Made by a program: the position numbers and the translations under genes. Positions 281 through 43,364 of a stretch of DNA of 64,000 nucleotides are shown piece after piece; position 1 is the stretch's first letter, and each line of letters opens with the position of its first letter. Origin of the DNA: Gammaproteobacteria bacterium (GTDB taxonomy: Bacteria; Pseudomonadota; Gammaproteobacteria; SZUA-140); the NCBI GenBank assembly GCA_026982565.1, contig JALSGV010000044.1, forward strand, positions 8,506-72,505. The letters run 5' to 3'. The notes under the pieces were generated by a model, which had not been told where the DNA came from, made no database searches, and saw only the letters and a program-made list of their open reading frames with translations.

Positions 281-1492
281 TTATTGTTTTAAACGTGCTG
301 CGATACGCAAGCGCAGCGCATTCAGCCTGATGAATCCGGCGGCATCCTTCTGGTTGTATTTCCCCTCATCATCTTCGAACGTGGCGACATCTGCATCGAA
401 AAGACTGTAACTCTCCGACCTCCTGCCGACCACCTGGACATTGCCCTTGTACAGTTTGAGGCGCACCTCGCCTGTTACCGTGGCCTGGGACATGTCGATC
501 ATCTCCTGCAACATCTCCCGCTCCGGGCTCCACCAGTAGCCGTTATAGATGAGACTGGCGTAACGGGGCATAAGTTCATCTTTCAGGTGGGCCACCTCCC
601 GGTCCAGGGTGATGGACTCCAGGGCGCGGTGGGCCTTGAGCATGATGGTGCCGCCGGGCGTCTCGTAACAGCCGCGGGATTTCATGCCCACATATCGGTT
701 TTCCACGATGTCCAGGCGGCCGATGCCGTTCTGCCCCCCCAGATGGTTCAAGGTCGCCAACACCTTGGCGGGACTCATGGCCTCGCCGTTGATGGCGGTG
801 ATATCCCCCTTCTCATAGGTCAGCTCGACATACACCGGCTGATCCGGCGCCTGCTCCGGGGCCACCGACCAGCGCCACATGTCCTGCTCCGGCTCGCACC
901 AGGGATCCTCCAGGCACCCACCCTCATAGGAAATGTGCAGCAGGTTGGCGTCCATGGAGTATGGGGACTTCCTGCCGCGTTTCTTCTCGATGGGTATGCC
1001 GTGCCGCTCGGCATAGGCCAGCAGTTTCTCCCGCGAATTGAGATCCCACTCCCGCCAGGGCGCGATGACATGAATATCGGGCTTGAGGGCATAGGCGCCC
1101 AGCTCGAAACGCACCTGATCGTTGCCCTTGCCGGTGGCGCCGTGGGAAATGGCGTCGGCGCCCGTCTCGCTGGCGATCTCCACCAGGCGCTTGGCGATGA
1201 GGGGACGCGCAATGGAAGTACCCAGCAGGTACTCGCCTTCATAGACCGTGTTGGCGCGGAACATGGGAAACACATAGTCGCGCACGAAATCCTCGCAGAG
1301 ATCCTCGATGTAGATTTCCTTCACCCCCAGGGCCTCGGCCTTGGCGCGCGCCGGCGCCACCTCCTCGCCCTGCCCGATATCCGCGGTGAAGGTCACCACC
1401 TCGCAACCATAGGTTTCCTGCAGCCAGCGCAGAATCACCGCTGTATCCAGGCCGCCGGAATAGGCGAGCACGACTTTCTTGATGTCTGACAT
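281..1492 (-). CDS. argG: Argininosuccinate synthase
   Basis: 403 aa. N-terminal PP-loop [15 protein letters not shown], and a full-length ArgG-like sequence ([32 protein letters not shown]). Confidence 0.95.
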
Positions 1493-1550
1493 AGTCCGTA
1501 ATGTTGATGGTTGATATCTGTTATTCCCTCACCCCAACTCCTCTACCTCG

Positions 1551-1604
1551 GAGGGTGTCGTAAAAGCCCCTCTCCCGCCGGGAGAGGGGCTTTTACGACA
1601 CCCT
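1551..1604. repeat. REP-like long palindrome (copy 1 of a 4-member family): GAGGGTGTCGTAAAAGCCCCTCTCCC-GCC-GGGAGAGGGGCTTTTACGACACCCTC; likely also a bidirectional terminator
   Basis: Near-perfect 26-bp inverted repeat, intergenic between the argG start and the E2-E3 gene stop. Related copies lie at 11811-11875, 31583-31655 (inverted) and 58209-58236, and share the CCCTCACCCC / GGAGGGTGTCG(C/T)AAAAG / CTCCC(G/T)CCGGAGGGAG cores. Confidence 0.7.
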
Positions 1605-1683
1605 CCATGGGGAGTGGGAAACGAAAGGGACAGCCCCGATCCCAATCTTCTATCTTTCCTCTTTCCTCTTTTATCTTTAAAGT

Positions 1684-4600
1684 TTATCTTTTCCCCGCCT
1701 TCTTCGCCGACCGCATCAGACGCGACAACAAACGCCGCGCCATCTCGCCAAACATCTCGGTCTGGGTGGGATGGGGATGAATGGCCGCGGCGACCTGGTC
1801 CAGCGTCATCCTGCCGGCGACCATCATCACGGCCTCGCCGATGAGGGTATCCGCATGGTCCGCCAGGAAATGCACGCCGACGATGCGCCGCGTCTTCTTG
1901 TCGGCCACGATCTTGATCATGCCCAGGGTCTCGCCCGTGATCATGGCCTTGGCGTCGATGCTGAAGGGCATCTTGACCTCCACCGCATCCATGCCCTTTT
2001 CTCTGGCCTGCGCCACGGACAGGCCGACGAAGGCGGCCTGGGGCCGGGTGAAGATCACGCCGCAGTCCTGATCCTGGTCATAGGCCGCCGGCTCGCCGGC
2101 GATGGTGGACGCGGCCACGCGCCCTTGTTGTCCCGCCGTATGGGCCAGCATCAGGCCGCCGATGACATCGCCGACCGCGAAGATGTGAGGAACACTGGTG
2201 CGGCAACTGGCGTCGGCCTTGATGACGCCCCGCTCGATGGCCACGCCGGCCTTGTCCAGTTTGAGGGGCTCCAGCACAGGGCGCTTGCCCGTGGCCATGA
2301 TGACGTAGTCGCACTCAGTCTTGTGGGACTGGCCACCGGCGTCCTCGAACTCAACCGTCATGGCCCCCGGCGCGCCGGCGATGGCGCCGATCTTGACGGC
2401 GGTCTTGATGTCGAGGCGCGGTTCGTCATTGAGAATGGCGGTCAACTGGCCGGCAATCTCCGTCTCCACTTCCGCCAGGATGCGCTCCTGGGCCTCCAGC
2501 AAGGTCACCTCGGCACCGAAATCCTGGAAGATCTGCGCCATCTCCAGGCCGATGGCGCCACCACCGATGACCACCATGCTCCTGGGCACCTCGGTCAAAC
2601 CCCATACCGTATCCGATGTCAGGACCCCGCCCTGAGCCACACCCTCGGCGGCGCCGGGAATGGGCGGCACGTAGGGCGGCGCGCCGGTGGCGATGACGGC
2701 GCAGCCGAAAGTGATGCGTTCACCCTGGCTGCCATCCCCCAGGGGGGCGCGCGCGTGGGGGTCGGTGGTATTGGCCGAGGTATCCACGAACAACTGGTGA
2801 TCCGACTCGAAAGAGGCAAATCCCTGGATGACCTTGATCTTGACCCCCTTGTCGGTCTTGAGGGCCATGTCGCCACGGGTCTCCAGCACCTCGCGGCGCG
2901 TCTTCTCCAGCAGGGACCAGTCCAGCTTCGCGCCGGTGGTGCCCACCACGCCCAGATGGGCGTCATGGGCGCGGTCGCGGATGCGGTCCGCCGCGGCGCG
3001 CCAGGCCTTGGAGGGAATGCAGCCGCGCCACAGGCACTCGCCGCCCGGATAGGGCGCGTCGTTGATCATGGCCACCTTGATGCCATGGGCGGCCAGATCG
3101 CGGGCGCAGTCCTCGCCGCCCGGACCGCCGCCGATGACGACCACGTCATAATCCCATTCCCCTTCCGGGATGGCGGGGCCGGGCGCGCCCATCCAGGTCT
3201 CCGGGTGTTCGATTGCCTGCTTGAGCGCCTTGAGATACAAAGCCACCTGGGCGCCGTTCACCACGCGGTGATCGGCGGTGACGGTGAGGGGCATGCCCTC
3301 CTTGCCGGCGGCGGAAATGGCCAGAATGGCCGCCGTGCCGGGCGTCGGGATGGCATCGAAATGGTCGACGCCCAGCATACCCATATTGGAAACCATAAAG
3401 GTAGGATTGGAGAATTCCTCGGGCTTGAGGCGGCGGTTGCGCGCCTTCGCCACCAGATCCTTCCAGTCCTGGTTCAGTTCTTCCAGGGGGCGCGATTCAC
3501 AATGGCGCAGCACCGGCACCACCAGGCCGCCGTCATCGGCCGCCACCGCCATGCCCACATCCACGTTGCCGCGCTCCACCAGCTTGTCCACGGGCTGATA
3601 GGCCCAGTTCATGCGTGGCTGTTCCTGCATGGCCAGGGCGCAGGCCTTGGCGATGGCCACCGTCACCGATACCCCGTTCTTCTTGGCCGCGCGGATCAGG
3701 GCGTCGGGATGGGCGTTGACCGTGACCCGGAAGGTGGGCATGGTCAGTGAGGCCGTCATGTTCTGGCTGATGGCGCGCTCCAGGGAAGTCATCTTGCGGC
3801 CCTCGCCCGGCACCTGAATCTCGGGCATGGCGGGCGCGGCAGCCGCGGCCACGGGGGCCGGCGCGCCGTGTTGCCTCCCTTGTCGCGCGGCGGCGCGTTG
3901 CACATCGCTGCCCGTGATGACGCCGCCGGGCCCGCTGCCGCTCAGGGCGGCCAGGTCCACGCCATACTCCGCCGCCAGTTGGCGAGCGTAGGGCGTCGCC
4001 TGCTTTCCCGCGGGGCGCGGCGCCGGCGCCAGGCCCGGCATGCGGGCGGGGACTGGTGACTCCGCCTCCGCCGCAGGGGCGTCAGGCTGCGCCGCGGCTT
4101 CCTTGGGGGCGGCAGCCGCGGGAGAGGCCGCTTCGTCGCGCACCACCTGCGCGGCGGCCTCCACCAGGTAGGCCATGGGGGCGCCCACGGGCACCACACT
4201 GTCCACAGGGGTGATGGGACCGGACAGATAGCCCTCGCGGAACACCTCCACGTCCATAATGGCCTTGTCCGTCTCCACGGTGGCGACGATGTCGCCGCGC
4301 TCGATCCTGTCCCCGATATTCTTTTCCCAACTGACGACGATGCCTTCCGTCATGGTGTCGGAGAGCTGGGGCATCTTGATGGTATGCACCACCCCCTCCG
4401 GGGCCGCGGCGGCGCCGGAGGGCGCCGTGGATTCGGAAACCGCCGCCTCGGCTTCCGCCGCCGTGGCATCTTCCTGAGCAGAATCAGCCTGAACCGGCGC
4501 GCGCTCTGTTGCAAGCGCTTCTGTCGATACTTCTTCAGGGGTTTCCACCAGAAAGGCGATGGGCTCGCCCACCGGCACGGTGGCATCGACCTCGACGCGC

Positions 4601-4791
4601 GGCCCGGACAGATAGCCCTCGCGGAACACCTCCACGTCCATGATGGCCTTGTCCGTCTCCACGGTGGCGACGATATCGCCGCGCTCGATCCTGTCCCCGA
4701 TGTTCTTTTCCCAACTGACCAGCACACCTTCCGTCATGGTATCGGAAAGCTGGGGCATCTTGATGGCGTATCTTTCAGACATGTCACTCAC
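1684..4791 (-). CDS. Fused dihydrolipoamide acyltransferase (E2) - dihydrolipoamide dehydrogenase (E3): two lipoyl domains, E3-binding domain, E2 catalytic domain, then a full FAD/NAD E3
   Basis: Single 1035-aa ORF. Lipoyl motif appears twice (ATVETDKAIMDVE). PSBD-like region (PYARQLAAEYGVDLAALSGSGPGGVITGSDV). E2 catalytic domain with DHRVVNG. The E3 follows immediately: GXGXXG FAD site (DVVVIGGGPGGEDCA), redox disulfide (GGECLWRGCIPSK), NAD site (MVVIGGGAIGLEMAQ) and C-terminal HPHPTQTEMFGE. Confidence 0.85.
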   Translation of the reverse strand: MSDMSERYAIKMPQLSDTMTEGVLVSWEKNIGDRIERGDIVATVETDKAIMDVEVFREGYLSGPRVEVDATVPVGEPIAFLVETPEEVSTEALATERAPVQADSAQEDATAAEAEAAVSESTAPSGAAAAPEGVVHTIKMPQLSDTMTEGIVVSWEKNIGDRIERGDIVATVETDKAIMDVEVFREGYLSGPITPVDSVVPVGAPMAYLVEAAAQVVRDEAASPAAAAPKEAAAQPDAPAAEAESPVPARMPGLAPAPRPAGKQATPYARQLAAEYGVDLAALSGSGPGGVITGSDVQRAAARQGRQHGAPAPVAAAAAPAMPEIQVPGEGRKMTSLERAISQNMTASLTMPTFRVTVNAHPDALIRAAKKNGVSVTVAIAKACALAMQEQPRMNWAYQPVDKLVERGNVDVGMAVAADDGGLVVPVLRHCESRPLEELNQDWKDLVAKARNRRLKPEEFSNPTFMVSNMGMLGVDHFDAIPTPGTAAILAISAAGKEGMPLTVTADHRVVNGAQVALYLKALKQAIEHPETWMGAPGPAIPEGEWDYDVVVIGGGPGGEDCARDLAAHGIKVAMINDAPYPGGECLWRGCIPSKAWRAAADRIRDRAHDAHLGVVGTTGAKLDWSLLEKTRREVLETRGDMALKTDKGVKIKVIQGFASFESDHQLFVDTSANTTDPHARAPLGDGSQGERITFGCAVIATGAPPYVPPIPGAAEGVAQGGVLTSDTVWGLTEVPRSMVVIGGGAIGLEMAQIFQDFGAEVTLLEAQERILAEVETEIAGQLTAILNDEPRLDIKTAVKIGAIAGAPGAMTVEFEDAGGQSHKTECDYVIMATGKRPVLEPLKLDKAGVAIERGVIKADASCRTSVPHIFAVGDVIGGLMLAHTAGQQGRVAASTIAGEPAAYDQDQDCGVIFTRPQAAFVGLSVAQAREKGMDAVEVKMPFSIDAKAMITGETLGMIKIVADKKTRRIVGVHFLADHADTLIGEAVMMVAGRMTLDQVAAAIHPHPTQTEMFGEMARRLLSRLMRSAKKAGKR

Positions 4792-4887
4792 TCAGGAATT
4801 TTGGTACCGCAGAGGATACCCGGATTTGCAGAAAATACAATCCCTTCCCGCATCTCCAGGGATGGGGGAAGGGGTATGGAGCAGGTG

Positions 4888-5874
4888 TCAGTGTTTGCCG
4901 GGAAACAGGGACAGGGCCGCCGCGATGACATCCTTGGCGGAGGGTATGGCCGCCTTTTCCAGCTTGTGATTGTAGGGGATGGGCACATTGGCGGCGGAGA
5001 CGCGCACCGGCGGCGCATCCAGCTCGAAAAAGCATTCCTCGTTGAAGATGGCCATCACCTCGGCGCCCACCCCGACGGGGGCCTCGGCCTCCTCGGCGAT
5101 GATGGCCTTGTGGGTGCGGGCGACGGAGGCCTTGATGCCCTCGCGGTCCAGAGGGCTGAGCGCATAGAGATCCACCACCTCGGCCTCGATGCCGTGCTCC
5201 CTGGACAGCACTTCGGCGGCCTGCAGGCACCAGTGTACGGAGATGTTGTAGCCGAACAGGGTGATGTCACGTCCCTGTCTGACCACCTCGGAGCCTTCCA
5301 GGGGATGGAAGAATTCCTCGTCGGGCACCTCGCCCTTCATGTTGTACATGAGTTCGTGCTCGTTGATGAACACGGGATCGGCGCAGCGCACCGCCGATTT
5401 CAGCAGGCCATAGGCCTGTTTCGGGTTGGAGGGCGTCACCACGCGCAGCCCGGCGATGCCCATGAACACCTTCTCCATGCGCGCGGAGTGCTGGGCGCCC
5501 AACTGATGGGCGGTGCCGCCCGGCGAGCGGATGACGATGGGCGCCGTGAGCTGGCCGCCGGACATGTAACGCACCTTGGCGGCGGTGTTGACGATCTGGT
5601 CCGTGGCCAGCCAGGCGAAGTTCACCGACATGATCTCGATGATGGGCTTGACGCCCACGAAAGAGGCGCCGATGCCCAGGCCGGTGTAGCCGTTCTCGCT
5701 GATGGGCGTGTCGATGACCCGCTCCGCGCCGTACTTGTCGTACAGCCCCTGCGTGGCCTTGTAAGTGCCACCGGCCACGCCGATGTCCTCGCCCATGACA
5801 ATGACCAGGGGGTCATTGCCCAATTCCTCATCGTGGGCGCGGCGCAGCGCCTCCCAATACATCATCTGTGACAT
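4888..5874 (-). CDS. pdhB: Pyruvate/2-oxoacid dehydrogenase E1 component beta subunit (transketolase-like)
   Basis: 328 aa. Typical E1-beta N-terminus (YWEALRRAHDEELGNDPLVIVMGEDIG...YGAERVIDTPISENG). The start overlaps the pdhA stop by 1 nt, suggesting translational coupling. Confidence 0.9.
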   Translation of the reverse strand: MSQMMYWEALRRAHDEELGNDPLVIVMGEDIGVAGGTYKATQGLYDKYGAERVIDTPISENGYTGLGIGASFVGVKPIIEIMSVNFAWLATDQIVNTAAKVRYMSGGQLTAPIVIRSPGGTAHQLGAQHSARMEKVFMGIAGLRVVTPSNPKQAYGLLKSAVRCADPVFINEHELMYNMKGEVPDEEFFHPLEGSEVVRQGRDITLFGYNISVHWCLQAAEVLSREHGIEAEVVDLYALSPLDREGIKASVARTHKAIIAEEAEAPVGVGAEVMAIFNEECFFELDAPPVRVSAANVPIPYNHKLEKAAIPSAKDVIAAALSLFPGKH

Positions 5875-6923
5875 TAGTTGACTCCACCGTGTACATAGGG
5901 ATCGTTTTCGGCCAGCACATACTTCTCCAGATCCTCCACCCTGGGCTCCGGGGACTGCTCGGCGAAACCGATCACTTCATTTTCAATCTCTTCGATAATG
6001 GCCTTGTCCATTTCCTTGAACTCGCTCAGGGTCAGATCCCGGGAGTCGATGAGGCGGTTGCGCAGGATGTGGATGGGATCGCGCTTGAGCCACTTGCTCT
6101 CTTCGTCCTTGGAACGGTAGGCGTTGGAATCGGACATGGAATGGCCGCGGTAGCGGTAGGTCATCAATTCCAAAAAATAAGGCCCGTTGCCGGACCTTAC
6201 GTGTTCGATCGCCTTTTTGGCCGCCGCATACACCACCTCCACGTCCTGACCGTCCACCTGGACGGCGGGAATATCGTAGGCGGCGGCGCGCTTGTACTGA
6301 TCCTGAACCGCCGTGGAGCGGTCGATGCGGGTGCCGATGCCGTAGAGATTGTTTTCACACACATAGAGCACGGGCAGATCCCAGATCTTGGCCATGTTCA
6401 GGGACTCGTGAAAGGTGCCCTGGTTGTTGGCGGCATCGCCCAGAAAACAAATGGAGATCTCGTCCCCGCCCTTCATCTTGAGGCCCTTGGCGATGCCCAC
6501 CGCCAGCGGAAACGGGCCGCCCACCAGGGCATAACCGCCCATGAAACGGTGCGCCACGTCGAAGATGTGCATGGAACCGCCACGGCCCTTGCAGGTGCCG
6601 CCCTCCTTGCCGAACAACTCCGCCATGACCGCGCGCGGATCGGATCCGCACTTGATGGCGTGGATATGGTCGCGGTAGCTGGTCATGACATAGTCATGGC
6701 CGATGCGCGCGGCTTCGAGCACGCCATGGGCGCACGCCTCCTCGCCGGAATAGAGATGCAGGAACCCGCCGATCTTGCGCTCCACGTAGGCCTCGTAACA
6801 TCTTTCCTCAAAACGCCGGGCGTAGAGCATTTCGCGCAGCAGCCGCTTTTTGTCCGTCACGCTGAGCAGTTCACTGTCGTTCTCCGCCACACCCTGTTGT
6901 GCAAAACCTGGCATTACTTTCAT
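5874..6923 (-). CDS. pdhA: Pyruvate/2-oxoacid dehydrogenase E1 component alpha subunit (TPP-dependent)
   Basis: E1-alpha signatures (YRFEERCYEAY...GFLHLYSGEEA; YRYRGHSMSD). The start is placed at the internal MKVMPG Met (6923-6921), preceded by GAAGGATGG Shine-Dalgarno. The ORF-track start at 7028 adds a non-conserved 35-aa extension. Confidence 0.85.
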   Translation of the reverse strand: MKVMPGFAQQGVAENDSELLSVTDKKRLLREMLYARRFEERCYEAYVERKIGGFLHLYSGEEACAHGVLEAARIGHDYVMTSYRDHIHAIKCGSDPRAVMAELFGKEGGTCKGRGGSMHIFDVAHRFMGGYALVGGPFPLAVGIAKGLKMKGGDEISICFLGDAANNQGTFHESLNMAKIWDLPVLYVCENNLYGIGTRIDRSTAVQDQYKRAAAYDIPAVQVDGQDVEVVYAAAKKAIEHVRSGNGPYFLELMTYRYRGHSMSDSNAYRSKDEESKWLKRDPIHILRNRLIDSRDLTLSEFKEMDKAIIEEIENEVIGFAEQSPEPRVEDLEKYVLAENDPYVHGGVN

Positions 6924-7113
6924 AAGCCATCCTTCTGTTATTTCGTGTATGAAAAATCTGTCGATTTGGTTACGATGAACGGCCTGGCCACCCCCGGTTT
7001 CGTTATATTTTTGCGGTATGGCCGGCAAAAACCCATCATCTTTGGCCCGCTATCATCAGCTTTTTTGGCTACCAGGTCAAGAATATACCACACAATAAGA
7101 AAGGTTATTAGAC

Positions 7114-8598
7114 GTGAAAATCCATTTGAAACACCGCGCGGACCTGCCCACGCAGGCGGAACTCGACAAGATCAGCAACCTCATCATTTTGCTGCCGGAA
7201 CGGGACACATCTGCGCCCTGGCCCGCCTTTCCATTCATGAAAATTATTAGAAACAGGCTTAAAATCACTGATTCAAAAATAAATTCCAAATCGGCGATAA
7301 CGACCGACTTGCCCAACGAGGCAGGCACGCGGACCACCCTGAGCACCCTCAGGGCCGAACTCACCACCCATGAACTGCTGCGCCTGGCGCGCAAGCACGC
7401 CGATGTCCATCTGGCGCAGAATCCCCGCGACGTCACCCTCATCATGCCGGGCATCCGCCAGCGGGCGCTGCGTCACCGCGCGGCCGAGGCCATGCTCGCC
7501 GCACTCCTCGCCGGAGCCGCCGCCATGCCCACCTGCAAGAGCGCCAAGCCCGGCAAAAAGCGCCTGCGCGCCGTCACCTGCCACGGCCTCGGCGATTCAT
7601 TCGACTACCGGCGCATCCAGGCCGAGTGCGCGGGCAACTCCCTGGCGCGGGAGCTGACGGCCCTGCCTCCGAACCTGCTGACGCCCCGCCTCTACCGCCA
7701 GCGCATCCGGCAACTGGCGCGCCAGCAGGGCTGGACAATGCGCTTCCTGAACCACAAGGCCCTGGAGAAGGAAAACGCCGGCGCCTTCCTGGCCGTGGCC
7801 CAGGGCAGCCCGGACAAGGACGCCGGCATGGTGCGCCTCAGCTATATTCCCGCGCGCGGCAAAAGCAGAAAGCCCCTCACCCTCGTCGGCAAGGGCATCT
7901 GCTACGACACGGGCGGCGTCAACCTGAAACCCGCCCGCCACATGCACGGCATGCACGAGGACATGCAGGGCAGCGCCGTGGCCCTGGGCGCCCTCCTCGC
8001 CCTGAGCCAGCTCAAGGTCCCGTTTCCCGTGCACTGCTGGCTCGCCCTGGCGCAGAACCACATCGGTCCCAGGGCCTACAAACAGAACGACGTCGTCACC
8101 GCCAGCAACGGCACCACCATCGAAGTGATGCACACGGACGCCGAAGGGCGCATGGTGCTGGCCGACACCCTGGCCCTGGCGGCCCGTGACAAGCCCGCCC
8201 TGATGATCGACTACGCCACCCTGACGGGGTCCTGCGTCTACGCCCTCGGCACCCGCTACAGCGGCGCCTTCACCAACCGGGACAGCTATATTCCAACCCT
8301 CATCGCGGCGGGAAAGCACAGTGGCGAACGGGTGTGGCCTTTCCCCCTCGACGAAGATTACGAAGAAGCCCTGGAGAGCAAAATCGCCGACATCAAACAA
8401 TGCACCCTGGATGGCGAGGCGGATCACATCATCGCCGCGCGCTTTCTGCAGCGCTTCGCGGGCAAGGGCCCCTGGATCCACATCGATCTGGCCGCAGGCA
8501 ATCACAAAGGGGGGCTGGGTCACATTCCCACGGACTACACGGGCTTCGGGGTGCGATTCACACTCAATCTGCTCCTCGACCAAAAGATCATGGAATGA
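7114..8598 (+). CDS. M17-family (leucyl/cytosol) aminopeptidase-like protein
   Basis: 494 aa. C-terminal M17 catalytic domain (LVGKGICYDTGGVNLKP...HTDAEGRMVLADTLA..., compare the NTDAEGRL signature). Divergent from the pdh operon. Confidence 0.75.
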   Translation: MKIHLKHRADLPTQAELDKISNLIILLPERDTSAPWPAFPFMKIIRNRLKITDSKINSKSAITTDLPNEAGTRTTLSTLRAELTTHELLRLARKHADVHLAQNPRDVTLIMPGIRQRALRHRAAEAMLAALLAGAAAMPTCKSAKPGKKRLRAVTCHGLGDSFDYRRIQAECAGNSLARELTALPPNLLTPRLYRQRIRQLARQQGWTMRFLNHKALEKENAGAFLAVAQGSPDKDAGMVRLSYIPARGKSRKPLTLVGKGICYDTGGVNLKPARHMHGMHEDMQGSAVALGALLALSQLKVPFPVHCWLALAQNHIGPRAYKQNDVVTASNGTTIEVMHTDAEGRMVLADTLALAARDKPALMIDYATLTGSCVYALGTRYSGAFTNRDSYIPTLIAAGKHSGERVWPFPLDEDYEEALESKIADIKQCTLDGEADHIIAARFLQRFAGKGPWIHIDLAAGNHKGGLGHIPTDYTGFGVRFTLNLLLDQKIME

Positions 8599-13063: not shown

Positions 13064-14218
13064 ATGCAGGAAGCAACACACTACAAAGGCAGGGAGCACA
13101 GCGGCATCAAGCACTATCTTCTTGAAAGCTACCTGGAAGTACTGTTCATGATAATTGGCCAACATGAACGAAGAATATGCTACGTCGATTGCTTTTCAGG
13201 CCCTTGGAACGAAGCGAACGAGAACCTGGCTGGCACATCGATCGCGCTATCTCTGAATGTTATGCGCAAATGCCGCAACAGCCTAAGAAAACTGGGTAAA
13301 TCCGTCGAGTTTCGAGCCCTGTTCATCGAGAAGGAAAAGCATGCCTATAAAAAGCTCAACGCCTATCTGAAAGAAACCCATATAGATGGCGTCACATCAG
13401 AGGCTAAAAATGGTGAATTCCTTGACTTGCGCCCTGAGATACTGAAGTGGTGTAGCCCCAATGACTTTGTATTTTTCTTTATTGATCCGAAAGGCTGGAA
13501 GAACGCTATTGAAATACCAACACTGTCACCCCTATTGCGGCGTCAGCGATCAGAATTCCTGATAAACTTTATGTACGACTTCTTGAATCGTGCCCTTACA
13601 CAGGAACAATTTCAGGAAGATATGAACTCAATATTTGGTGAAATACCAGACACATCAGGAATGACACCGAAGGAAAGGGAAGAGCACCTGATACAGAGAT
13701 ACCTGGATTGCCTCAGATCCGTACCTACTGACAATAAAGACAGGCTACGATCAGCATATGTAAGTATATTGGACCCTATCAAAGACAGGACAAAATATCA
13801 CCTTGTTTATCTTACTCGCCACCCCTTGGGTATCGTGAAATTTATGAATGCCTCGGAAAAAATAGATATCGTACAGAAACGGGTACGCGCCAAAACAAAA
13901 CAACAGCGAAGGATCGAATCGACGAGACAGGAGGAGTTATTCTTCGACGAACCCGATTCCAGCACCACAGATACCGTGGCTATGGAAAGCGTAAAACAAT
14001 ATTGGCTAGAGAAACTTGCTACTACACCACGAGCATACGGGATAGAAGAGCTTGCAGACATGCTGGAAGAGACAAATTGGTTCGAAACAAATTTACAGCA
14101 AGCATTCAATGAGCTTATAGAGGAAGGTAAAGTGGTGAATATTGATTCTCGCGGCAAACGCCCCAAAAGGCCCGTGCACTTTGACAAGAACGAACAATTG
14201 AAAAGGACAAAGCCATGA
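13064..14218 (+). CDS. TcmP-like protein (three-Cys-motif partner protein family, as I recall TIGR04474), paralogue 1
   Basis: 384 aa. The N-terminal block HSGIKHYLLESYLEVLF...RICYVDCFSGPW parallels HSLAKHRVYEEYLLHYI...LTLIDGFAGGGVY in the second paralogue, an FxGxG-like nucleotide-binding motif. Directly followed by a Gp37/Gp68 gene with a 4-bp overlap. Confidence 0.55.
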   Translation: MQEATHYKGREHSGIKHYLLESYLEVLFMIIGQHERRICYVDCFSGPWNEANENLAGTSIALSLNVMRKCRNSLRKLGKSVEFRALFIEKEKHAYKKLNAYLKETHIDGVTSEAKNGEFLDLRPEILKWCSPNDFVFFFIDPKGWKNAIEIPTLSPLLRRQRSEFLINFMYDFLNRALTQEQFQEDMNSIFGEIPDTSGMTPKEREEHLIQRYLDCLRSVPTDNKDRLRSAYVSILDPIKDRTKYHLVYLTRHPLGIVKFMNASEKIDIVQKRVRAKTKQQRRIESTRQEELFFDEPDSSTTDTVAMESVKQYWLEKLATTPRAYGIEELADMLEETNWFETNLQQAFNELIEEGKVVNIDSRGKRPKRPVHFDKNEQLKRTKP

Positions 14219-14970
14219 GTACGCAATCTTCTATTGAATGGACCGAACAGACGTGGAATCCGGTAACAGGATGCACGAAGATATCCCCTGGATGCAAACA
14301 CTGCTATGCCGAAACTATGGCGAGGAGGCTCGAGGCCATGGGTGTTCGTGGATATGAAAATGGTTTCAGCCTTACCCTACTTCCAGAACGCCTGGGTGAA
14401 CCTCTGAAGCGCAGGAAACCGACGGTATATTTTGTTAACTCGATGAGCGACCTGTTCCATGAGGAGATTCCGGATAGCTTTATCCAACAAGTCTTCGATA
14501 TCATCAGACAAACACCTCAACACACCTATCAAATCTTGACCAAACGTGCCTACAGGATGGCGGAATTCTTCGATCATTACACTGCACCTCGAAATGCCTG
14601 GCTTGGCGTTTCAGTCGAAGATAGAAGACACGGTTTACCAAGAATCAAAGCACTCCGTAAAATATCAGCACAGATTCGGTTCTTGTCCGTAGAACCATTA
14701 CTCGAGGATCTTGGGAAAATTGATTTGCGGGATATCCATTGGGTCATTGTCGGAGGCGAATCCGGACCGAAGGCCCGCCCAATGAAGCAAGACTGGGTAA
14801 TCAATGTTCAGCGCCAGTGCGAACAACAAAATGTTGCCTTCTTCTTTAAGCAATGGGGCGGCTGGGGAGCTGACGGCAAAAAACGGGCAAAGAAACAAAA
14901 TGGCAGGACGCTATTAGGAAAGACGTGGGATGAAATGCCGACGCCTACGCTAGGCAATCAGTTTTTATAA
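14215..14970 (+). CDS. Phage Gp37/Gp68-family (DUF5131) three-Cys-motif protein
   Basis: 251 aa; SIEWTEQTWNPVTGCTKISPGCKHCYAETMA is the family's characteristic N-terminal W...WNP.TGC...GC..CYA motif (C-x6-C-x2-C), followed by VEPLLEDLG...VIVGGESGP.ARPM...W. Confidence 0.75.
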   Translation: MSTQSSIEWTEQTWNPVTGCTKISPGCKHCYAETMARRLEAMGVRGYENGFSLTLLPERLGEPLKRRKPTVYFVNSMSDLFHEEIPDSFIQQVFDIIRQTPQHTYQILTKRAYRMAEFFDHYTAPRNAWLGVSVEDRRHGLPRIKALRKISAQIRFLSVEPLLEDLGKIDLRDIHWVIVGGESGPKARPMKQDWVINVQRQCEQQNVAFFFKQWGGWGADGKKRAKKQNGRTLLGKTWDEMPTPTLGNQFL

Positions 14971-14984
14971 ATATCACCCTGATA

Positions 14985-16340
14985 TTGATAGGAGTAATAG
15001 ATTTGCCAAAAAAGGAATATGATTGGCAGCTTGGCGAGGATCCCCCAAAGATTGAACTGCACAGCCTGGCTAAACATCGTGTTTACGAAGAATACCTCCT
15101 CCACTACATCCAGGTACTAAATTCTAATCCAAAGATTCCAAAATTTCGGCTAACACTGATAGACGGCTTCGCCGGCGGCGGCGTCTATCTCGACCCAAGA
15201 AACAATAGCCTATATACCGGGTCGCCACTGCGCCTTATCAAGGCGGCAGAAGCAGCGGCTTCTGCGGTAAATGTCAAACGGCAGCAAGGAGGGGTTCGTA
15301 ACCCTTTTGAACTACAGGCTGAGTATTTCTTCATTGAAAAGAAAAAGTCAAACCATGACTATCTGAACTGGTATCTGCGCGAACAGGGTTTGGGAGAACG
15401 CCTCAATAAGGATATCTTCTCATGGCCGGGTCAGTTCACAAAATTTCTGCCAACATTAATTAGCCGTATTAGCAGCAAAGGGAAAAGTCAACGGTGTATT
15501 TTTTTATTGGACCAATACGGTTATGGAGAAATCCCGTTTCCAGATATTCAAACAATTTTCGCAAAATTGCCCCATGCCGAGATCATATTGACCTTTGCTA
15601 CAGACTGGCTCATCGACTACATGTCAAACAAGCCAGAATATCTCAAAACTCTACAACGAATCGGGATCGCTCATGAGCTAGATATCGATCAATTATTGAA
15701 CTCCAAGAACGACACACCACAATGGCGACAACTAGTCCAATTTGAATTACATAAAGCCATTCCAAAACTCAGTGGCGCACTGCATTACACCCCCTTCTTT
15801 ATTGTGTCACCAGAGGCCAACCGCTCATTCTGGTTAATCCACCTTTCAAACCATCCGCGCGCGCGTGATGTAATGACACAATTGCATTGGCAGCTGAAGA
15901 ATCACTTCACACATTATGGCGGAGCTGGACTCCATATGTTTGGCTACGACCCGATGAAAGATGAACAACTGATCGGCGTGGCCGACATGTTTGGTAATAG
16001 TGAATTTTCCTTTGACAAGATTGCAAGAAAAAGAACTATCGAAGGGATAGTAGAAGAACTTCCACGGCTGATACACCGTTTCGCTGATGGAATTCGGTTT
16101 GATGAGTTCTACCGTTTAGTCGCTAACCAAACACCCGCTACGAGCGACCATATTCGAGAAGGCGCAAATCTATTGGCAGAGATTAAGGAGCTTGAAATTC
16201 TAGGCCCCAATGGAGAAAGACGGCGGAAAGCAAATACTATTACTAATCAAGATATTATTCGACCGCCTCAGCAAAAGACCCTCAGTTTTAGCAATAATGT
16301 GCCACTTGAAAGGAAAAACGAAAAAGCAACTAAAAAGTGA
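14985..16340 (+). CDS. TcmP-like protein, paralogue 2 (longer, C-terminal extension)
   Basis: 451 aa. Shares the HS..KH...Y...Y...D.F.G.G N-terminal architecture with the 13064-14218 product, and has a mid-region FLLDQYGYGEIPF like FFFIDPKGWKNAIEIP in paralogue 1. Confidence 0.55.
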   Translation: MIGVIDLPKKEYDWQLGEDPPKIELHSLAKHRVYEEYLLHYIQVLNSNPKIPKFRLTLIDGFAGGGVYLDPRNNSLYTGSPLRLIKAAEAAASAVNVKRQQGGVRNPFELQAEYFFIEKKKSNHDYLNWYLREQGLGERLNKDIFSWPGQFTKFLPTLISRISSKGKSQRCIFLLDQYGYGEIPFPDIQTIFAKLPHAEIILTFATDWLIDYMSNKPEYLKTLQRIGIAHELDIDQLLNSKNDTPQWRQLVQFELHKAIPKLSGALHYTPFFIVSPEANRSFWLIHLSNHPRARDVMTQLHWQLKNHFTHYGGAGLHMFGYDPMKDEQLIGVADMFGNSEFSFDKIARKRTIEGIVEELPRLIHRFADGIRFDEFYRLVANQTPATSDHIREGANLLAEIKELEILGPNGERRRKANTITNQDIIRPPQQKTLSFSNNVPLERKNEKATKK

Positions 16341-16361
16341 CACATGCAACATTCTCAATCA

Positions 16362-19067
16362 TCAATCTGATATTCGCGCAAAACGCTCAAAATCTTTCAA
16401 ATGCCGTGATTCATTGATCTCGTTATGGGGGATCAGCAGGTATTTCCATGGTTTCCCGCCATGTTTTTCCGCATATTCCGAAGCATGCCGACACCACTGG
16501 GCCGCTACCTCAGCTTTGGCCAACGCTTCCGAATCCTGCATGTCGGACTTGGCTTTGGTTTCCACCATATAAATCACACGATCCGTCTCGGCCACGAAAT
16601 CCGGCACGTATTCGGGCTGTTCCGCGCCGTGCTGGTAGTAGGTCTGGAACTGCCCCTTGACAGGCCGGAACCACTTTTCCACGTCGCGCTCCAGGATAAC
16701 GGCGAACCGTCGTTCGCTGTCTGAATCGAACTTTTGTAGTGGATAGAGGCATTTTTTGAACCCACCGAACAGCATCTGCTTGATCCGGCCTTTGTCATCC
16801 ACGGTTTCACGATAATTGCGAACCGGATGCTTTTCCGACGCCGTATAGTTGCAGGGCTTGAGCTGGGTGAATCCGCGGCTGACCTTGACCTCATATCCAG
16901 CCGCTTTTTCCCAGAAATGCTCCATCATCTGGGTATGAATATGCTCGCCGATAAGCCGTCGGTCACGGTCCAATACTGCCTGAGCCTCGTCCTTGGACAG
17001 ATAGCTCAACAGGTGTCGCACAACCTGTCCAGCCAGGTCGTAGAGCAAATCGGCATGTGCGGCATAGTCGATATCGTCGTAGTCAACCAGCGTGTATACG
17101 ACATAATCTTCGAGTCGCTGCTCAGTGATACCCACTTCCGAGGCCAGGGTCTCCTGCTCGTTGGTGCGCAAGTTCTGGATGATCAGCTCCCGATCCACAG
17201 GTTGCAGGTGCAGGCCGCTCAAATCCAGGGTAAAGGGATTGAAGCCCACGGTCACTTCTCCAGTTGGAACCACCGCAATTCGGGGAATATCGATAATCTT
17301 CCGGCTGACAATCTCGGTGGTCCTGGCCACGATCGTTTCCAGATCGACTGCCTCTTTCTCCAACAGCTCACCTTGCATAGGTGTCAGGCGTTCCTTGACC
17401 CGCTCCATGATGGCCTCACGCACATGGGGCTGGTTCAGGGCTGAACTGGTGGGCACCTTGTCATGCTGCTTTTCCAGTTCATGAATCACATCAAGCACCG
17501 CACGGGCCGCCTCCTTTTCCGCTTCCTGGGTGAATACTGGCGCTTCCAGACCTTCTGGCTTGATTTCATACTGTGTTCCACCCGCACTTGTTGCCTTGGG
17601 CTCAGCCAGCCCCAAGGCTTCCTCTGCAGTGGAACCCACGGTGATGCTGATCATCCCCTCGTCATCGTCCGGTGCTTCCAGAATCACCTGTTTGAGTCGG
17701 ATGGGCGAATCTCCCCGGTTGGCCTCGTCGATGATCTCCTGAAAGCGATCATGGGCGATGATATTGAGCCTATCCACCGCACTCGCGCCGGTACGTTTCC
17801 CGTAGGGCAATCGCAAGCCGCGGCCGATGGACTGTTCGATCAAGGTACGCGCATTGGCGGCACGCAACGGCACGATGGTGTAGAGATTGGTAACATCCCA
17901 GCCCTCCTTGAGCATGTTGACGTGGATCACGATCTCAGTCGGCTCCCCCTCGCTCTCCACGGCCAGCAGCCGCTCAATCATCTCCTCTTCCGCCTTGCCG
18001 GTCTTGCTGCTGTCCACCTGGATCACCTTGTCGCGGTAACGGCCCTCGAAGAAGGCCTCGGACTGAATCAACGCCAGTAACTGCGATGCATGCGTGGTAT
18101 CACGGGCGATCACGAGCACGAAGGGTTTGACCGTTTTTACGCTGTTCTGGCGCGCATAGGTCATCAGCTCCACCTTGGTAGCCTCGTGCACACGAATGCC
18201 GTCCTCCAGCTTGATCTTTTCGATCTCCTCCGGCGTATGGCGTTTGGCGTCGAAATCGCGTTGGGTAACTACTGCTGGCTCTTTGACGAAACCGTCCTCC
18301 ATGGCACGAGCCAGGGGATAATCCATCACCACGTTCTTGAACGGCACAGGCCCACGGTTGGATTCCACGAAGGGGGTCGCCGTCAGTTCCAGGCCAAACA
18401 GGGGTTTCAATTCATTGATGGCGCGCACCCCGGCGCTGGCGCGGTAGCGGTGCGACTCATCCATCAGCAGCACCAGATCGGGCAACTCGGCGAGATAATT
18501 GAAGTAGCTGTCCCCCAGGTACTCGGACAGGCGCTTGATACGGGGACTCTTGCCGCCACGCACCTCCGAGTTGATCTTGGAAATATTGAAAATGTTAATC
18601 ACGACAGGCGACAGCAGGCTCAGATTACCCGCGCGCTGTTCATAATTGTCCCCAGTGATGATCTCTGGTGGATAGGCAGCGAACTCGGCGATGCCCTTGA
18701 ACACATACTTGGGTGTGTTGGGGGTAAAGTCCGTGATCAACTTGTCGTAGATGGTCAGGTTCGGCGCCAGCACGAAAAAGTGCTTGAAGCCATGGGCCAG
18801 GTGCAGATAGCTGATAAAAGCCCCCATCAGGCGCGTCTTACCCACACCAGTGGCCAACGCGAAACACAGCGACGGAAACTCCCGCTCGAAATCCTCCAGC
18901 GTGGGGAACTCCGCCTTGAGGATATTTAGCACCGCCTCCAGATCGCGGTCATGGCTGCGCATATCCGGTGCAGTATCCAACGCCCTGGCCAATTTCTCCA
19001 GGGACTCGGCCTGGGGAGGGCGCAGTGACAACCGCCCCTTGATGGAATTCAACACGCGCAGATTCAT
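16362..19067 (-). CDS. res: Type III restriction-modification system restriction subunit (Res; SF2 helicase-like ATPase with C-terminal nuclease)
   Basis: 901 aa. Walker A LATGVGKTRLMG, motif II LVLLMDESHRY, motif III LELTATPF. The start overlaps the mod stop by 4 bp. Confidence 0.85.
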   Translation of the reverse strand: MNLRVLNSIKGRLSLRPPQAESLEKLARALDTAPDMRSHDRDLEAVLNILKAEFPTLEDFEREFPSLCFALATGVGKTRLMGAFISYLHLAHGFKHFFVLAPNLTIYDKLITDFTPNTPKYVFKGIAEFAAYPPEIITGDNYEQRAGNLSLLSPVVINIFNISKINSEVRGGKSPRIKRLSEYLGDSYFNYLAELPDLVLLMDESHRYRASAGVRAINELKPLFGLELTATPFVESNRGPVPFKNVVMDYPLARAMEDGFVKEPAVVTQRDFDAKRHTPEEIEKIKLEDGIRVHEATKVELMTYARQNSVKTVKPFVLVIARDTTHASQLLALIQSEAFFEGRYRDKVIQVDSSKTGKAEEEMIERLLAVESEGEPTEIVIHVNMLKEGWDVTNLYTIVPLRAANARTLIEQSIGRGLRLPYGKRTGASAVDRLNIIAHDRFQEIIDEANRGDSPIRLKQVILEAPDDDEGMISITVGSTAEEALGLAEPKATSAGGTQYEIKPEGLEAPVFTQEAEKEAARAVLDVIHELEKQHDKVPTSSALNQPHVREAIMERVKERLTPMQGELLEKEAVDLETIVARTTEIVSRKIIDIPRIAVVPTGEVTVGFNPFTLDLSGLHLQPVDRELIIQNLRTNEQETLASEVGITEQRLEDYVVYTLVDYDDIDYAAHADLLYDLAGQVVRHLLSYLSKDEAQAVLDRDRRLIGEHIHTQMMEHFWEKAAGYEVKVSRGFTQLKPCNYTASEKHPVRNYRETVDDKGRIKQMLFGGFKKCLYPLQKFDSDSERRFAVILERDVEKWFRPVKGQFQTYYQHGAEQPEYVPDFVAETDRVIYMVETKAKSDMQDSEALAKAEVAAQWCRHASEYAEKHGGKPWKYLLIPHNEINESRHLKDFERFARISD

Positions 19068-20857
19068 TGCTCTTCCTCCCCAAACAGGGCCACCTGTCCG
19101 GGTGCGGTTTTCTTCTTTGACTTCTTCTTAGGTACGGCTGGCTGTTCAGGTTCTGGCTCCAACATTGGGAGATTCTGTACGTTCAAGCTGTAGTCGTCAC
19201 GACCCCATTCGCAACGGGAAAGCACCACTTTGGGAATCTTCTTGATGGTGAGATTGGGCCAGCGCTCCGTCGCTTTTGCCGCGCTGATACCCCGGAAAGC
19301 GCTGCATAGTACCAGCAAGCTGCGGCCTTCACCCACCTCTTCCGCCAGGGCCTGCAACTGGCTCACCGACAGGTTCTGCGTGGTGACATAGATGAAATCC
19401 TGCTCCGTGGAATGGCCGTGCTGCCACCAGACGGTTTCCGACGGCGTATAGGTAAATCCCTCCAGCTTGCACAGCGCCTCGGCCAACATGGCAGCATTGT
19501 ATTCCTTATTGATGACCCAGTTACCCCACTTGTCCTTCTCCAGCAATGAAGGGGCCAGGCGGTAGTAACGGAAACCGCCGCCACCCTTCCACTCATAATT
19601 CTCACTAACTCCAGACTTATCATCCCCATCAATAACTCTCATTAATCTTGGAACTATATGTGTATATGCCTGTTCCCGTAATTCCACTGTAATCCATTTT
19701 CTACCCATTTTATGGGCCACGGCAGAAGTAGTGCCCGACCCACCAAAAGAGTCAAGCACAAGATCACCCGGTTTGGAAAAGTGTTTCAATATTAGCTCTA
19801 ATAGTTTTTCTGGCTTTTTTCCGCCCCGGAAATCCACACCACCTTCATGTCTACAATTACCAAAACTACCAGCCAGATCGAAGAAATTTTGGATTGGTTT
19901 TGCTTTATCCGCCTTCCCTTCTTTTATAGCACTTAATGTTTTCAACGGTATACCTGAGTAAAATTTACCTTTTGTGGCTGTAGATTTTTTTGGACCCGTC
20001 ATGTAACGGTAACCCAATCCATCCTCACCTATTCCATAGACTTTATATAAACATGATAATCCATCTATTTTTTTTCTAGGAGCTAAGTACTTATCAAGAA
20101 ACTCTCCTGAACTTCCAGACTGCCGAACCAAAGACCCTGTTGCCCACGTCTCCTTTAACCCTGTTAAGGATGGCTCTATTTTCTTGATTTCGTATTCTCC
20201 AGGCTTAAATAACACCACCTTCTTTCCACCCAACTCTAGCTCTTCACCATCTGATTTTTCAATTATCATCCATTCAAATTTTTCAATCTTGTAGGGTTCT
20301 TTATCTTTATTCGCCTTCGCCAAATTGCGATCCTTTGCATAGATAAAGCACTGCTCAATTACTTTTTGGTAATCGTTATCTTCTGCAAGAGTTTTATGGC
20401 CATATCTAACTTGAACATAAAATGTCGTTAAATAGTTCGATCTTCCAAAGATCTCATCTAGCAACACTTTAAGATATGCACCTTCACCATCATCTATTTG
20501 ACAACAAAAAAAACCATCATCTGAAAGCAGTCGCCTAAGAGATTCCAAACGATCTCTCATCAAAGATAACCATATTGAGTGCTCTATTCCATCATCGTAG
20601 TTTTCAAAAGCATTTCCGGTATTGTATGGAGGATCGATATAGATACACTTCACCTTGCCCGTAAACTCCTGCTCCAGCGCCTTCAGCGCCAGCAGGTTGT
20701 CACCGAAGATCAGGCGATTGTCGAAAATGTCGTTCTCCGTCACCCGATGCTTGGCGTAATACGACTTATCCGGATCTTCCAGCAGAATCCGCGGTTCCAG
20801 CTTCGGCCGCTTGTCCTTTCCTATCCAGGTGAGTTCCAGTTTTTGTTTCTTGGCCAT
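19064..20857 (-). CDS. mod: Type III restriction-modification system methyltransferase subunit (Mod; beta-class N6-adenine MTase)
   Basis: 597 aa. Motif IV IYIDPPYNTGNAF, motif I VLDSFGGSGTTSAVA near the C-terminus, and a central variable TRD. AT-rich compared with its surroundings. A8/T8 homopolymers at 20506-20513 and 20068-20075. Confidence 0.9.
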   Translation of the reverse strand: MAKKQKLELTWIGKDKRPKLEPRILLEDPDKSYYAKHRVTENDIFDNRLIFGDNLLALKALEQEFTGKVKCIYIDPPYNTGNAFENYDDGIEHSIWLSLMRDRLESLRRLLSDDGFFCCQIDDGEGAYLKVLLDEIFGRSNYLTTFYVQVRYGHKTLAEDNDYQKVIEQCFIYAKDRNLAKANKDKEPYKIEKFEWMIIEKSDGEELELGGKKVVLFKPGEYEIKKIEPSLTGLKETWATGSLVRQSGSSGEFLDKYLAPRKKIDGLSCLYKVYGIGEDGLGYRYMTGPKKSTATKGKFYSGIPLKTLSAIKEGKADKAKPIQNFFDLAGSFGNCRHEGGVDFRGGKKPEKLLELILKHFSKPGDLVLDSFGGSGTTSAVAHKMGRKWITVELREQAYTHIVPRLMRVIDGDDKSGVSENYEWKGGGGFRYYRLAPSLLEKDKWGNWVINKEYNAAMLAEALCKLEGFTYTPSETVWWQHGHSTEQDFIYVTTQNLSVSQLQALAEEVGEGRSLLVLCSAFRGISAAKATERWPNLTIKKIPKVVLSRCEWGRDDYSLNVQNLPMLEPEPEQPAVPKKKSKKKTAPGQVALFGEEEQ

Positions 20858-20866
20858 GATTTACCT

Positions 20867-21427
20867 TTAGAGTGGTTGCGTGAGAGCAGCCATCATCGAA
20901 TTCTTCACTGTTTGCACGTCGGTCTGATTTTCGAAAATTGCCCTTGGCTGTTTGTTCCAGGTGTTCGCCTTTATAACATTGATCAATTCATTCGCAATGG
21001 TGTCGATCGCCACCGAGATTCGCTTTTTCTCATCGTCGGTCAGCGCCAAATCGCCACTCCAGCGCAACTGAGTCTTCAGTAATAGTATATGCAGAATCAG
21101 CCATTTTCCGTGCCGAAGGATTTCGCCATCTTCCTGAGATTCACCTTTGGCACGATCGATGATCGTTTTCTGAACAATGCGGCTTATCTGTACGACACGC
21201 CATAGTTCCCTGGCTGTCAAAGCATCCGAAAAAAGGCGTTCATACGCCTCATCCAATGGCGATCCCGTTGCGGACAGGTCCGGCCGTCTGAACAACCGCT
21301 TTTGATCTTTCTTTGCCGCCACAACAAAGGCAGGCCAGGAGCTGGCTGTTTCGCAACATGCCAGAGCGGGTGCGGCCTCACGAACGCTGAAGACTGCATC
21401 CGATAACGAGGGGGTCATTGTCGCCAT
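20867..21427 (-). CDS. Hypothetical protein (no recognisable domain) downstream of the AIPR gene, overlapping it by about 50 bp
   Basis: 186-aa ORF in the same orientation as AIPR and mod-res. Coding status is uncertain. Confidence 0.35.
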   Translation of the reverse strand: MATMTPSLSDAVFSVREAAPALACCETASSWPAFVVAAKKDQKRLFRRPDLSATGSPLDEAYERLFSDALTARELWRVVQISRIVQKTIIDRAKGESQEDGEILRHGKWLILHILLLKTQLRWSGDLALTDDEKKRISVAIDTIANELINVIKANTWNKQPRAIFENQTDVQTVKNSMMAALTQPL

Positions 21428-24955: not shown

Positions 24956-25160
24956 CTGACGCCTCCTTGTCTAGCGCTTTTTCTATCAGCAAACGCCAGT
25001 CCTCTGCCCTCAATTTACCTGAAGCTATTTCCCGGGACGTATGCGGAGCATCTTCCTTTAGAATCAATCCCTCATCCAACAATGCGTTGGTTACGATTTC
25101 TGCGAGTTCCTCGGCAGGTGTTTTGTCATTTTCTTCTGCGTCACTCATATGAGCCTCCAT
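24948..25160 (-). CDS. Small acidic hypothetical protein (70 aa) between the SNF2 helicase and the SMC-like ATPase genes, overlapping both ends
   Basis: ORF MEAHMSDAEENDKTPAEELAEIVTNALLDEGLILKEDAPHTSREIASGKLRAEDWRLLIEKALDKEASDE. Overlaps the SNF2 stop by 16 bp and the ATPase start by 8 bp. No homology recognised. Confidence 0.4.
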   Translation of the reverse strand: MEAHMSDAEENDKTPAEELAEIVTNALLDEGLILKEDAPHTSREIASGKLRAEDWRLLIEKALDKEASDE

Positions 25161-28009: not shown

Positions 28010-28077
28010 TATTTCTATTCCGGTATTGTCATTTCCGTTTCAGATTCGCATCCCACATCATTTTACATTCAACTACA

Positions 28078-40436: not shown

Positions 40437-40447
40437 GGTTTTCCCTG

Positions 40448-43138: not shown

Positions 43139-43246
43139 GTAAGTACAAGCCTGGTGCCAAGCAATTGATACTGCCAGCAGACAACAGCAATTGCCTCAGC
43201 CAGGACTGATTGACCGCAACCGGCTGATGAGCAAATTTTATTATTG

Positions 43247-43282
43247 TTAACCCGGCAACAATATATATGATAGCCGGGTTAA
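43247..43282 (-). terminator. Hairpin TTAACCCGGC-(16 nt AT-rich loop)-GCCGGGTTAA downstream of the yjbH-like gene, followed on the transcribed strand by an A/U-rich tract
   Basis: Perfect 10-bp stem. It could also act as an operator in the roughly 225-bp AT-rich gap upstream of the wza-like gene. Confidence 0.4.
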
Positions 43283-43364
43283 TAAGAGATGACCCTTCCA
43301 GATCACGGAACATGAGAATACCACATCAGGGCTAAGAACTGATGGCAAGAGGGACAGGGCCCGC

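Follow-up and report, generated by a model that had tools for sequence, protein, structure and literature searches.

A conserved E2-E3 fusion in a predicted three-gene pyruvate dehydrogenase operon of an uncultured gammaproteobacterium

In textbook 2-oxoacid dehydrogenase complexes, dihydrolipoamide dehydrogenase (E3) is a separate and shared enzyme, reversibly docked on a shell of 24 or 60 acyltransferase (E2) subunits. Whether both enzymes can instead be carried by one chain, and what such a chain could assemble into, is the question raised by a stretch of 64,000 nucleotides from an uncultured gammaproteobacterium (assembly GCA_026982565.1, contig JALSGV010000044.1, positions 8,506 to 72,505; the whole stretch is hereafter called the window). 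A pdhC-like gene of this window (1684..4791, minus strand) encoded an E2 and an E3 in a single open reading frame (ORF) of 1035 amino acids (aa), read from a GTG at 4791 to the stop codon at 1684-1686. An earlier note, made from the sequence alone, had described a complete E2 in frame with a complete E3 at this place, and both the ORF listing and Pfam agreed with it. We estimate the probability at about 0.85 that the fusion is genuine and conserved, and that it would work as a pyruvate dehydrogenase (PDH) encoded by an E1alpha-E1beta-E2E3 operon.

Distribution of the fusion and gene order

The fused form was the rule among the relatives of the window protein. All of the best 120 protein clusters (68-100% identical to the window protein) were 1000-1140 aa long and contained both PF00198 and PF07992. 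In a scan using one genome per species, at least 580 species-representative genomes encoded a relative, and clustering at 50% identity reduced the whole clade to one representative (P0049). Homologous loci were fetched from 80 genomic contexts (64-87% identity, many assemblers and habitats); every one of them (80/80) aligned in a single piece with an open frame across the E2-E3 junction, and the E1alpha and E1beta genes were found upstream of the fusion wherever the fetched locus reached far enough upstream. The same fusion and gene order were present in the finished genome of an isolate, Sulfuriflexus mobilis (AP018725.1; fused protein WP_126453847.1), in which the order M17 aminopeptidase (divergent), E1alpha, E1beta, E2E3 and argG seen at window 281-8598 was reproduced on the chromosome (L083 6336-15529). 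Carriers that have names belonged mostly to sulfur-oxidiser lineages (Sulfuriflexus, Thiogranum, Thiohalobacter, Thiohalomonas, Thiohalomonadaceae, Chromatiales). A complete genome of Ectothiorhodospiraceae bacterium 2226 also contains the fusion. The fusion had been thought unusual, which holds relative to characterised complexes, while in databases it is widespread.

The start of the fused gene is likely the ATG at 4782, giving a protein of 1032 aa: the database protein P0001 (1032 aa), 100% identical to the window protein, begins at this ATG, three codons downstream of the GTG. The two E1 genes, which the earlier note had placed just upstream as pdhA and pdhB, were indeed found there, all three genes being on the minus strand, on which the note was silent. 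The gene directly upstream codes for E1beta (4888..5874, minus; 328 aa, Transket_pyr and Transketolase_C domains) and overlaps by one base the gene for E1alpha (5874..7028, minus; 384 aa from a TTG, E1_dh at 6.6e-83). The true start of E1alpha is probably further downstream than this TTG, because the S. mobilis orthologue has 330 aa. Both subunits exceeded curated PDH-specific NCBIfam cut-offs, with 414.5 bits for E1alpha against TIGR03182 (cutoff 393.85) and 365.6 bits for E1beta against NF006667 (cutoff 321). Because E1 matches these PDH family models, the complex would be specific for pyruvate. No further E2 or E3 homologue besides the fused gene was found in the 64-kb window, so that the absence of a separate lpd, as previously proposed, holds within these 64 kb. 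Between 1400 and 7400, predicted promoters and terminators were no more numerous than in shuffled sequence.

Fusions of the same modules also occurred far outside the clade. At least nine clusters of distant E2-E3 fusions, 30-37% identical to the window protein, were obtained (P0132, P0133, P0134, P0137, P0139, P0156, P0160, P0166 and P0173), together with two shorter relatives (P0152, P0200); P0156 came from a Candidatus Bathyarchaeota genome. In all eight of those scanned with Pfam (i.e., all but P0160), E3_binding, 2-oxoacid_dh, Pyr_redox_2 and Pyr_redox_dim were found in one chain (8/8). They differed from the window protein in having a single lipoyl domain (7/8) or none (P0173) where the window protein has two, in their canonical CLN-type redox motifs (CLNRGC, CLNTGC, CLNVGC and similar, against CLWRGC in the window), and in connectors that varied in length and sequence, whereas that of the window's clade is fixed. 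The distant fusions probably arose independently, and the architecture would have arisen more than once.

Domains, junction and closest relatives

Pfam recovered all the modules previously proposed, namely two lipoyl domains, an E3-binding domain, an E2 core and a complete E3, and every named motif was present. Biotin_lipoyl (PF00364) matched twice, with the best stretch at residues 10-79 and a second copy at about 137-210. Lipoyl domain 1 (residues ~8-82; 4546..4770, minus) carried its lipoyl-lysine K48 in ETDKA (45-49; TDKA at 46), and lipoyl domain 2 (residues ~137-210; 4162..4383, minus) carried K176 in a second ETDKA (173-177; TDKA at 174) and aligned with the inner lipoyl domain of mammalian E2p. 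The family varied in its lipoyl domain count, a clade member of 1140 aa (P0013) having three instead of two. The peripheral subunit-binding domain (PSBD; residues ~264-300; 3892..4002, minus) was matched by PF02817 (E3_binding) at 265-298 (1.2e-13, 51.5 bits for a cutoff of 23.7), and the E2 acyltransferase catalytic domain (residues 332-534; 3190..3798, minus) by PF00198 (2-oxoacid_dh; 8.1e-47, 160 bits). The latter contained the catalytic residues Ser468 (SNMG at 468) and His508 (DHRVVNG at 507) as well as the C-terminal helix HPETWM. The earlier note let the E2 core end at DHRVVNG, but it extends about 20 residues beyond this motif, to ...IEHPETWM (534); as the alignment reaches residue 645 of the 647-residue mammalian E2p, the domain is complete.

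The E3 module (residues 548-1017; 1741..3150, minus) displayed an FAD site (GGGPGG, 554), an NAD site (GGGAIG, 743), a redox disulfide between C586 and C591 (CLWRGC, 586-591) and the His1007/Glu1012 dyad (HPHPTQTE, 1005-1012). Pyr_redox_2 (PF07992) matched residues 548-890 (4.1e-64) and Pyr_redox_dim (PF02852) residues 911-1017 (1e-27), with an additional match to PF00070. Behind the His-Glu motif, a conserved basic tail (residues 1018-1035, RRLLSRLMRSAKKAGKR; 1687..1740, minus), predicted to be helical, followed the pattern RRLLSRL[RM]RSxK..., of which R699, R700, L701, R704 and R707 (numbering of alignment A1) were invariant. In an AlphaFold2 (AF2) model of residues 321-1035 (monomer, pLDDT 80, pTM 0.71), this tail extended a long C-terminal helix (model residues 690-714). 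It was absent from canonical E3 in the alignment with the Geobacillus enzyme 1ebd, and present in the stand-alone protein P0125.

P0125 (487 aa; L081 5001-6464) is an unfused E3 of the same CLWRGC type, 58% identical to the fused E3 half. Its gene was divergent from an unrelated, complete and unfused E1alpha-E1beta-E2-E3 operon with its own canonical E3. P0125 was considered as a fission product of the window's operon and rejected, the E1 and E2 of the neighboring operon being only 26-40% identical to those of the window. The E3 half of the window protein thus belongs, on sequence grounds, to a divergent subfamily marked by CLWRGC that also occurs stand-alone.

Both halves pointed to the PDH complex by their closest relatives. 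The E2 half aligned end to end with the mammalian 60-mer E2p, both lipoyl domains and the PSBD included, and its best solved relatives were E2p (226 bits, as compared to at most 111 bits for E2o and E2b). For the E3 half, the top 35 solved relatives were all E3 (183-238 bits), the best being 1ebd (238 bits), while the sister enzymes mercuric reductase and glutathione reductase scored 166 and about 143 bits. The half was likewise closer to E3 than to mycothione or thioredoxin reductases or transhydrogenase. With the predicted fold, E3 again filled the top 50 Foldseek matches, and TM scores to E3 structures were 0.85-0.90. The fusion appears functional from its sequence. No solved chain was found by Foldseek to span both of them (best query-normalised TM 0.59), and the fusion accordingly has no structural template.

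The two enzymes were joined by a connector of fixed length and high conservation (residues 535-547, GAPGPAIPEGEWD; 3151..3189, minus). The distance from DHRxxNG to GxGxxG was 40 residues in 71 of 76 loci, and the junction sequence was nearly invariant (W-[ML]-G-x-x-G-P-A-I-P-E-G-x-W-D-Y-D). The majority-residue fraction reached 0.79 at the junction, similar to the folded domains (0.75-0.86) and far from the three classical inter-domain linkers (0.36-0.47), which are rich in Ala, Pro and Glu. In the AF2 model the junction was a coil, yet a confident one (pLDDT 75-91). The N-terminus of P0125, MGSSAKTTVIPEGDWD, matched the junction (IPEGDWD); since this stand-alone E3 starts there, IPEGxWD would be part of the E3 module and the true spacer would amount to about 6 residues only. 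The connector begins immediately after the E2 C-terminal helix, its HPETWM aligning with human residues 641-646. This helix (human 642-647) enters a pocket of the neighboring trimer and thereby builds the 24- and 60-mer shells, and its alteration in actinobacteria leads to trimers or hexamers (PMC12995895).

Alternative readings and proposed assembly

The fusion could be an artefact of assembly or sequencing, in which a lost stop codon or a frameshift merged adjacent E2 and lpd genes. The earlier note raised this possibility and proposed to look for a frameshift or for separate genes at the junction, and a 536-aa protein (P0124) initially resembled a separate E2. P0124 was rejected as such, being a 'partial' protein at the end of a 3993-bp contig; the junction DNA held no long homopolymer run, and the intact frame recurred in the 80 independent loci, which differ in species and assembler, in the full-length best 120 clusters and in the finished S. 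mobilis genome. An artefact is hence of negligible probability. A different doubt concerns the product of a genuine fused gene, as translation might also start internally, at Met534, and yield free E3 from the same mRNA. In the window, a GGAG lies 6 nucleotides upstream of the Met534 ATG, and P0125 begins at the equivalent position, with an N-terminus that matches the junction. However, the junction pattern could be placed in 75 of 81 loci, and in these the upstream anti-Shine-Dalgarno pairing energy was ordinary (its median ranked at quantile 0.41 among all positions of these genes), and the codon was not a start in 10 of the 75 (ATC, ATA, CTC, CTA, CTT). With neither the Shine-Dalgarno signal nor the start codon conserved, a conserved internal start was rejected, and internal initiation itself appears very improbable.

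Several features of the sequence weigh against reading the fusion as a PDH E2 and E3. The E3 half scored under the TIGR01350 equivalog cut-off (382.7 vs 408.8) and the E2 half under that of TIGR01349 (PDH acetyltransferase; 329.9 vs 445), although the latter remained the best E2 model. The redox motif is CLWRGC where CLNVGC is usual, and DHRVVNG has an Asn replacing the usual Asp. Some 22 residues of the Pfam model have no counterpart in the E2 domain, among them part of a hairpin ahead of the catalytic His, of which about 14 residues are missing in the clade (residues ~494-512; window 3220-3300, minus). The CLWRGC motif, the hairpin loss and the Asn were conserved in the window's clade, and the last two did not occur in the distant fusions. 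Since both halves fall under their NCBIfam equivalog cut-offs, each is a divergent member of its family; with TIGR01349 as best E2 model and E2p as best solved relatives, the E2 half reads as a divergent E2p and not as a non-E2.

These divergences leave room for two other functions. The C-terminal half might be a flavoprotein disulfide reductase with another job (e.g., antioxidant or thiol-reducing, fed by the lipoyl arms) rather than the E3 of the complex, to which its score under TIGR01350, the unusual CLWRGC motif and an insertion in its FAD domain (seen in the alignment with solved E3 relatives) would fit, as would the location of P0125, a member of the same subfamily, beside an operon already having a canonical E3. 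In Mycobacterium tuberculosis, E2p also serves a peroxidase system (PMC12995895). Nevertheless, the best sequence and fold matches were all E3, the His-Glu dyad and an NAD-type GxGxxG were present, and a Glu after the following strand was read from the alignment as a sign of preference for NAD over NADP. No other E3 gene was found in the operon or the window, and a complex with E1 and E2 and devoid of E3 would not turn over, which makes a reductase of another kind improbable. The complex might otherwise act on another 2-oxoacid or on acetoin; the low TIGR01349 score of the E2 half would allow it, and E1 alpha/beta architectures are also found in branched-chain and acetoin complexes. The passing of TIGR03182 by E1alpha and of NF006667 by E1beta, both PDH-specific, and the clear preference of the E2 half for E2p over E2o and E2b speak for pyruvate, and we regard a different substrate as unlikely to the same degree.

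If the fusion works as a PDH, the two lipoyl domains, borne on long arms rich in Ala, Pro and Glu, would be acetylated by E1, which presumably binds to the PSBD that the protein has kept. In the E2 active site (His508/Ser468), the acetyl group would then be transferred to CoA, after which the lipoyl domains would be re-oxidised by the covalently attached E3 (Cys586-Cys591, FAD, His1007/Glu1012, NAD+). E3 would be supplied in cis at an E2:E3 stoichiometry of 1:1. The active sites of E2 lie between trimer subunits and that of E3 is completed across the dimer interface. E2 thus needs a trimer and E3 a dimer, and therefore every chain should be in both three-fold and two-fold contact. The binding domain, for which E1 and E3 are competitors in canonical complexes (PMC12995895), would in the fused protein now serve E1 only, although this retained PSBD could still bind the E3 of another chain.

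The assembly is probably not a classical 24- or 60-mer shell with loosely tethered E3, because the short rigid connector begins at the very helix that makes the canonical two-fold contact between trimers. The inner cavity of the Geobacillus 60-mer is about 118 Å across and about 0.86 million cubic Å in volume. By a rough estimate, sixty E3 modules of 53 kDa would need about 3.8 million cubic Å and could not fit inside a canonical shell; an interior several times too small supports the need for a different arrangement. C-terminal extensions of E2p are directed towards the interior of the shell. One solved relative of the E2 half, 8eqn, has about 79 residues after the core, and we take it to be an engineered E2p-L4P particle with its C-terminal extensions placed inside. 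The fused protein could conceivably form a D3 hexamer, with three E3 dimers linking two trimers, or an expanded cage whose two-fold edges are occupied by E3 dimers. That E3 dimers act as integral structural struts of a new PDH core architecture, replacing the closed 24- or 60-mer shell with E3 docked outside, is a tentative proposal to which we give somewhat less than even odds. The quaternary arrangement is something we infer, the AF2 model being monomeric and yielding pLDDT and pTM (0.71) only.

A fusion of this kind may be tolerable where several complexes do not have to draw on the same E3, as in autotrophs whose tricarboxylic acid (TCA) cycle is incomplete, which fits the named carriers since these are mostly of sulfur-oxidiser lineages. 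A large clade of mostly autotrophic bacteria of the sulfur-oxidiser type would have E3 joined to E2 at 1:1, by a rigid connector at the shell-forming contact. This makes the fusion a natural test of which parts of the classical PDH architecture are dispensable, would free every binding domain for E1, and could provide engineers with a compact PDH of three genes. Within its clade the gene is nothing out of the ordinary, and it is already in public databases; its value lies in structural study, not in gene discovery, with the interest centered on a rigid and invariant connector at the shell-forming helix of a protein that has to trimerise and dimerise at the same time.

Known systems and other genes of the window

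The closest precedent is that of Thiobacillus (Acidithiobacillus) ferrooxidans, for which Powles and Rawlings (Microbiology 1997, 143:2189) reportedly described a PDH with 'an unusual E2-E3 subunit fusion' in a pdhABC operon. The three-gene operon of this chemolithoautotrophic proteobacterium is said to encode an E1 of the alpha/beta type and, with PdhC, a polypeptide of about 1000 aa that unites E2 and E3. The window fusion has this layout: pdhA and pdhB come first, and the third gene carries E2 and E3 in one uninterrupted frame. In the genome of A. ferrooxidans, PDH is listed as three consecutive genes, AFE3068-70, consistent with a pdhABC operon (PMC2621215). The window comes from a different organism, an uncultured gammaproteobacterium whose nearest named relatives are lineages of the Sulfuriflexus, Thiogranum and Thiohalobacter type, and no Acidithiobacillus record was among the best 120 proteins or the 80 loci listed. 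A search of open-access full-text literature found no paper discussing a PDH E2-E3 fusion. The window fusion is therefore a member of a kind abundant in databases, reportedly published in 1997, and structurally unexplored.

Canonical PDH of the alpha2beta2-E1/60-mer type (mitochondria, alphaproteobacteria, Geobacillus) shares its modules and chemistry with the window complex. It differs by a separate and shared E3, docked non-covalently on the PSBD or on E3BP in competition with E1 (PMC12995895), and by a free E2 C-terminal helix that locks trimers, where the window protein has E3 covalently attached about 6-13 residues past this helix. Loss of the shell is known from the trimeric Corynebacterium glutamicum E2p and the hexameric M. 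tuberculosis DlaT, in which a changed C-terminal helix abolishes the 24/60-mer (PMC12995895). Unlike in these actinobacterial cores, the helix sequence of the window protein is kept and extended, not re-oriented by an insertion, and the lineage is a different one.

Other covalent rearrangements involve part of these modules only. Neisseria P64k and the N. gonorrhoeae E3 (602 aa) also join E3 to another PDH module, an N-terminal lipoyl domain, and such lipoyl-domain E3 proteins (1bhy, 1ojt, 5u25) were among the solved relatives of the E3 half. Since P64k-type E3 bears a lipoyl domain without PSBD or E2 core, it meets no conflict of oligomeric symmetry. In OdhA/Kgd, the E2o catalytic domain is fused to E1o, i.e., an E1-E2 rather than an E2-E3 fusion; NF008907, a weak match to the window protein, was taken together with OdhA/Kgd as indicating that catalytic components can be fused.

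Further along the window lay argF (36513-37418), and no matches to rRNA, tRNA or Rfam families were found in the 64 kb. An apparent anti-phage or mobile defence island spanned 13064-29331. It included two TcmP-like 'three-Cys-motif partner' genes (13064-14218 and 14985-16340) flanking a weakly matched gene resembling radical S-adenosylmethionine (radical-SAM) mobile-pair genes (14215-14970), followed by a restriction-endonuclease-like gene (16362-19067), a DNA methyltransferase-like gene (19064-20857), an AIPR/MzaE-like gene (21378-22691), an SMC-like gene (22637-24955) and a SNF2 helicase resembling DrmD of DISARM (25145-28009; 665 bits, under cutoff).

A small biosynthetic cluster was found on the plus strand at 48452-57386. 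It encoded an adenylation-thiolation didomain protein (48452-50380, plus), a thiamine pyrophosphate (TPP)-dependent enzyme (50453-52195, plus), a protein of the phosphoenolpyruvate (PEP)-mutase family (52192-53178, plus) and a non-ribosomal peptide synthetase of 1390 aa with condensation, adenylation, thiolation and thioesterase domains (C-A-T-TE; 53214-57386, plus), and is a candidate pathway for a phosphonate-containing peptide. Exopolysaccharide genes occupied 39369-45485 and 58277-62289 (minus), and comprised a chain-length-determinant-like gene, a Wza-like exporter with SLBB domains, YjbH, a sulfotransferase and several glycosyltransferases.

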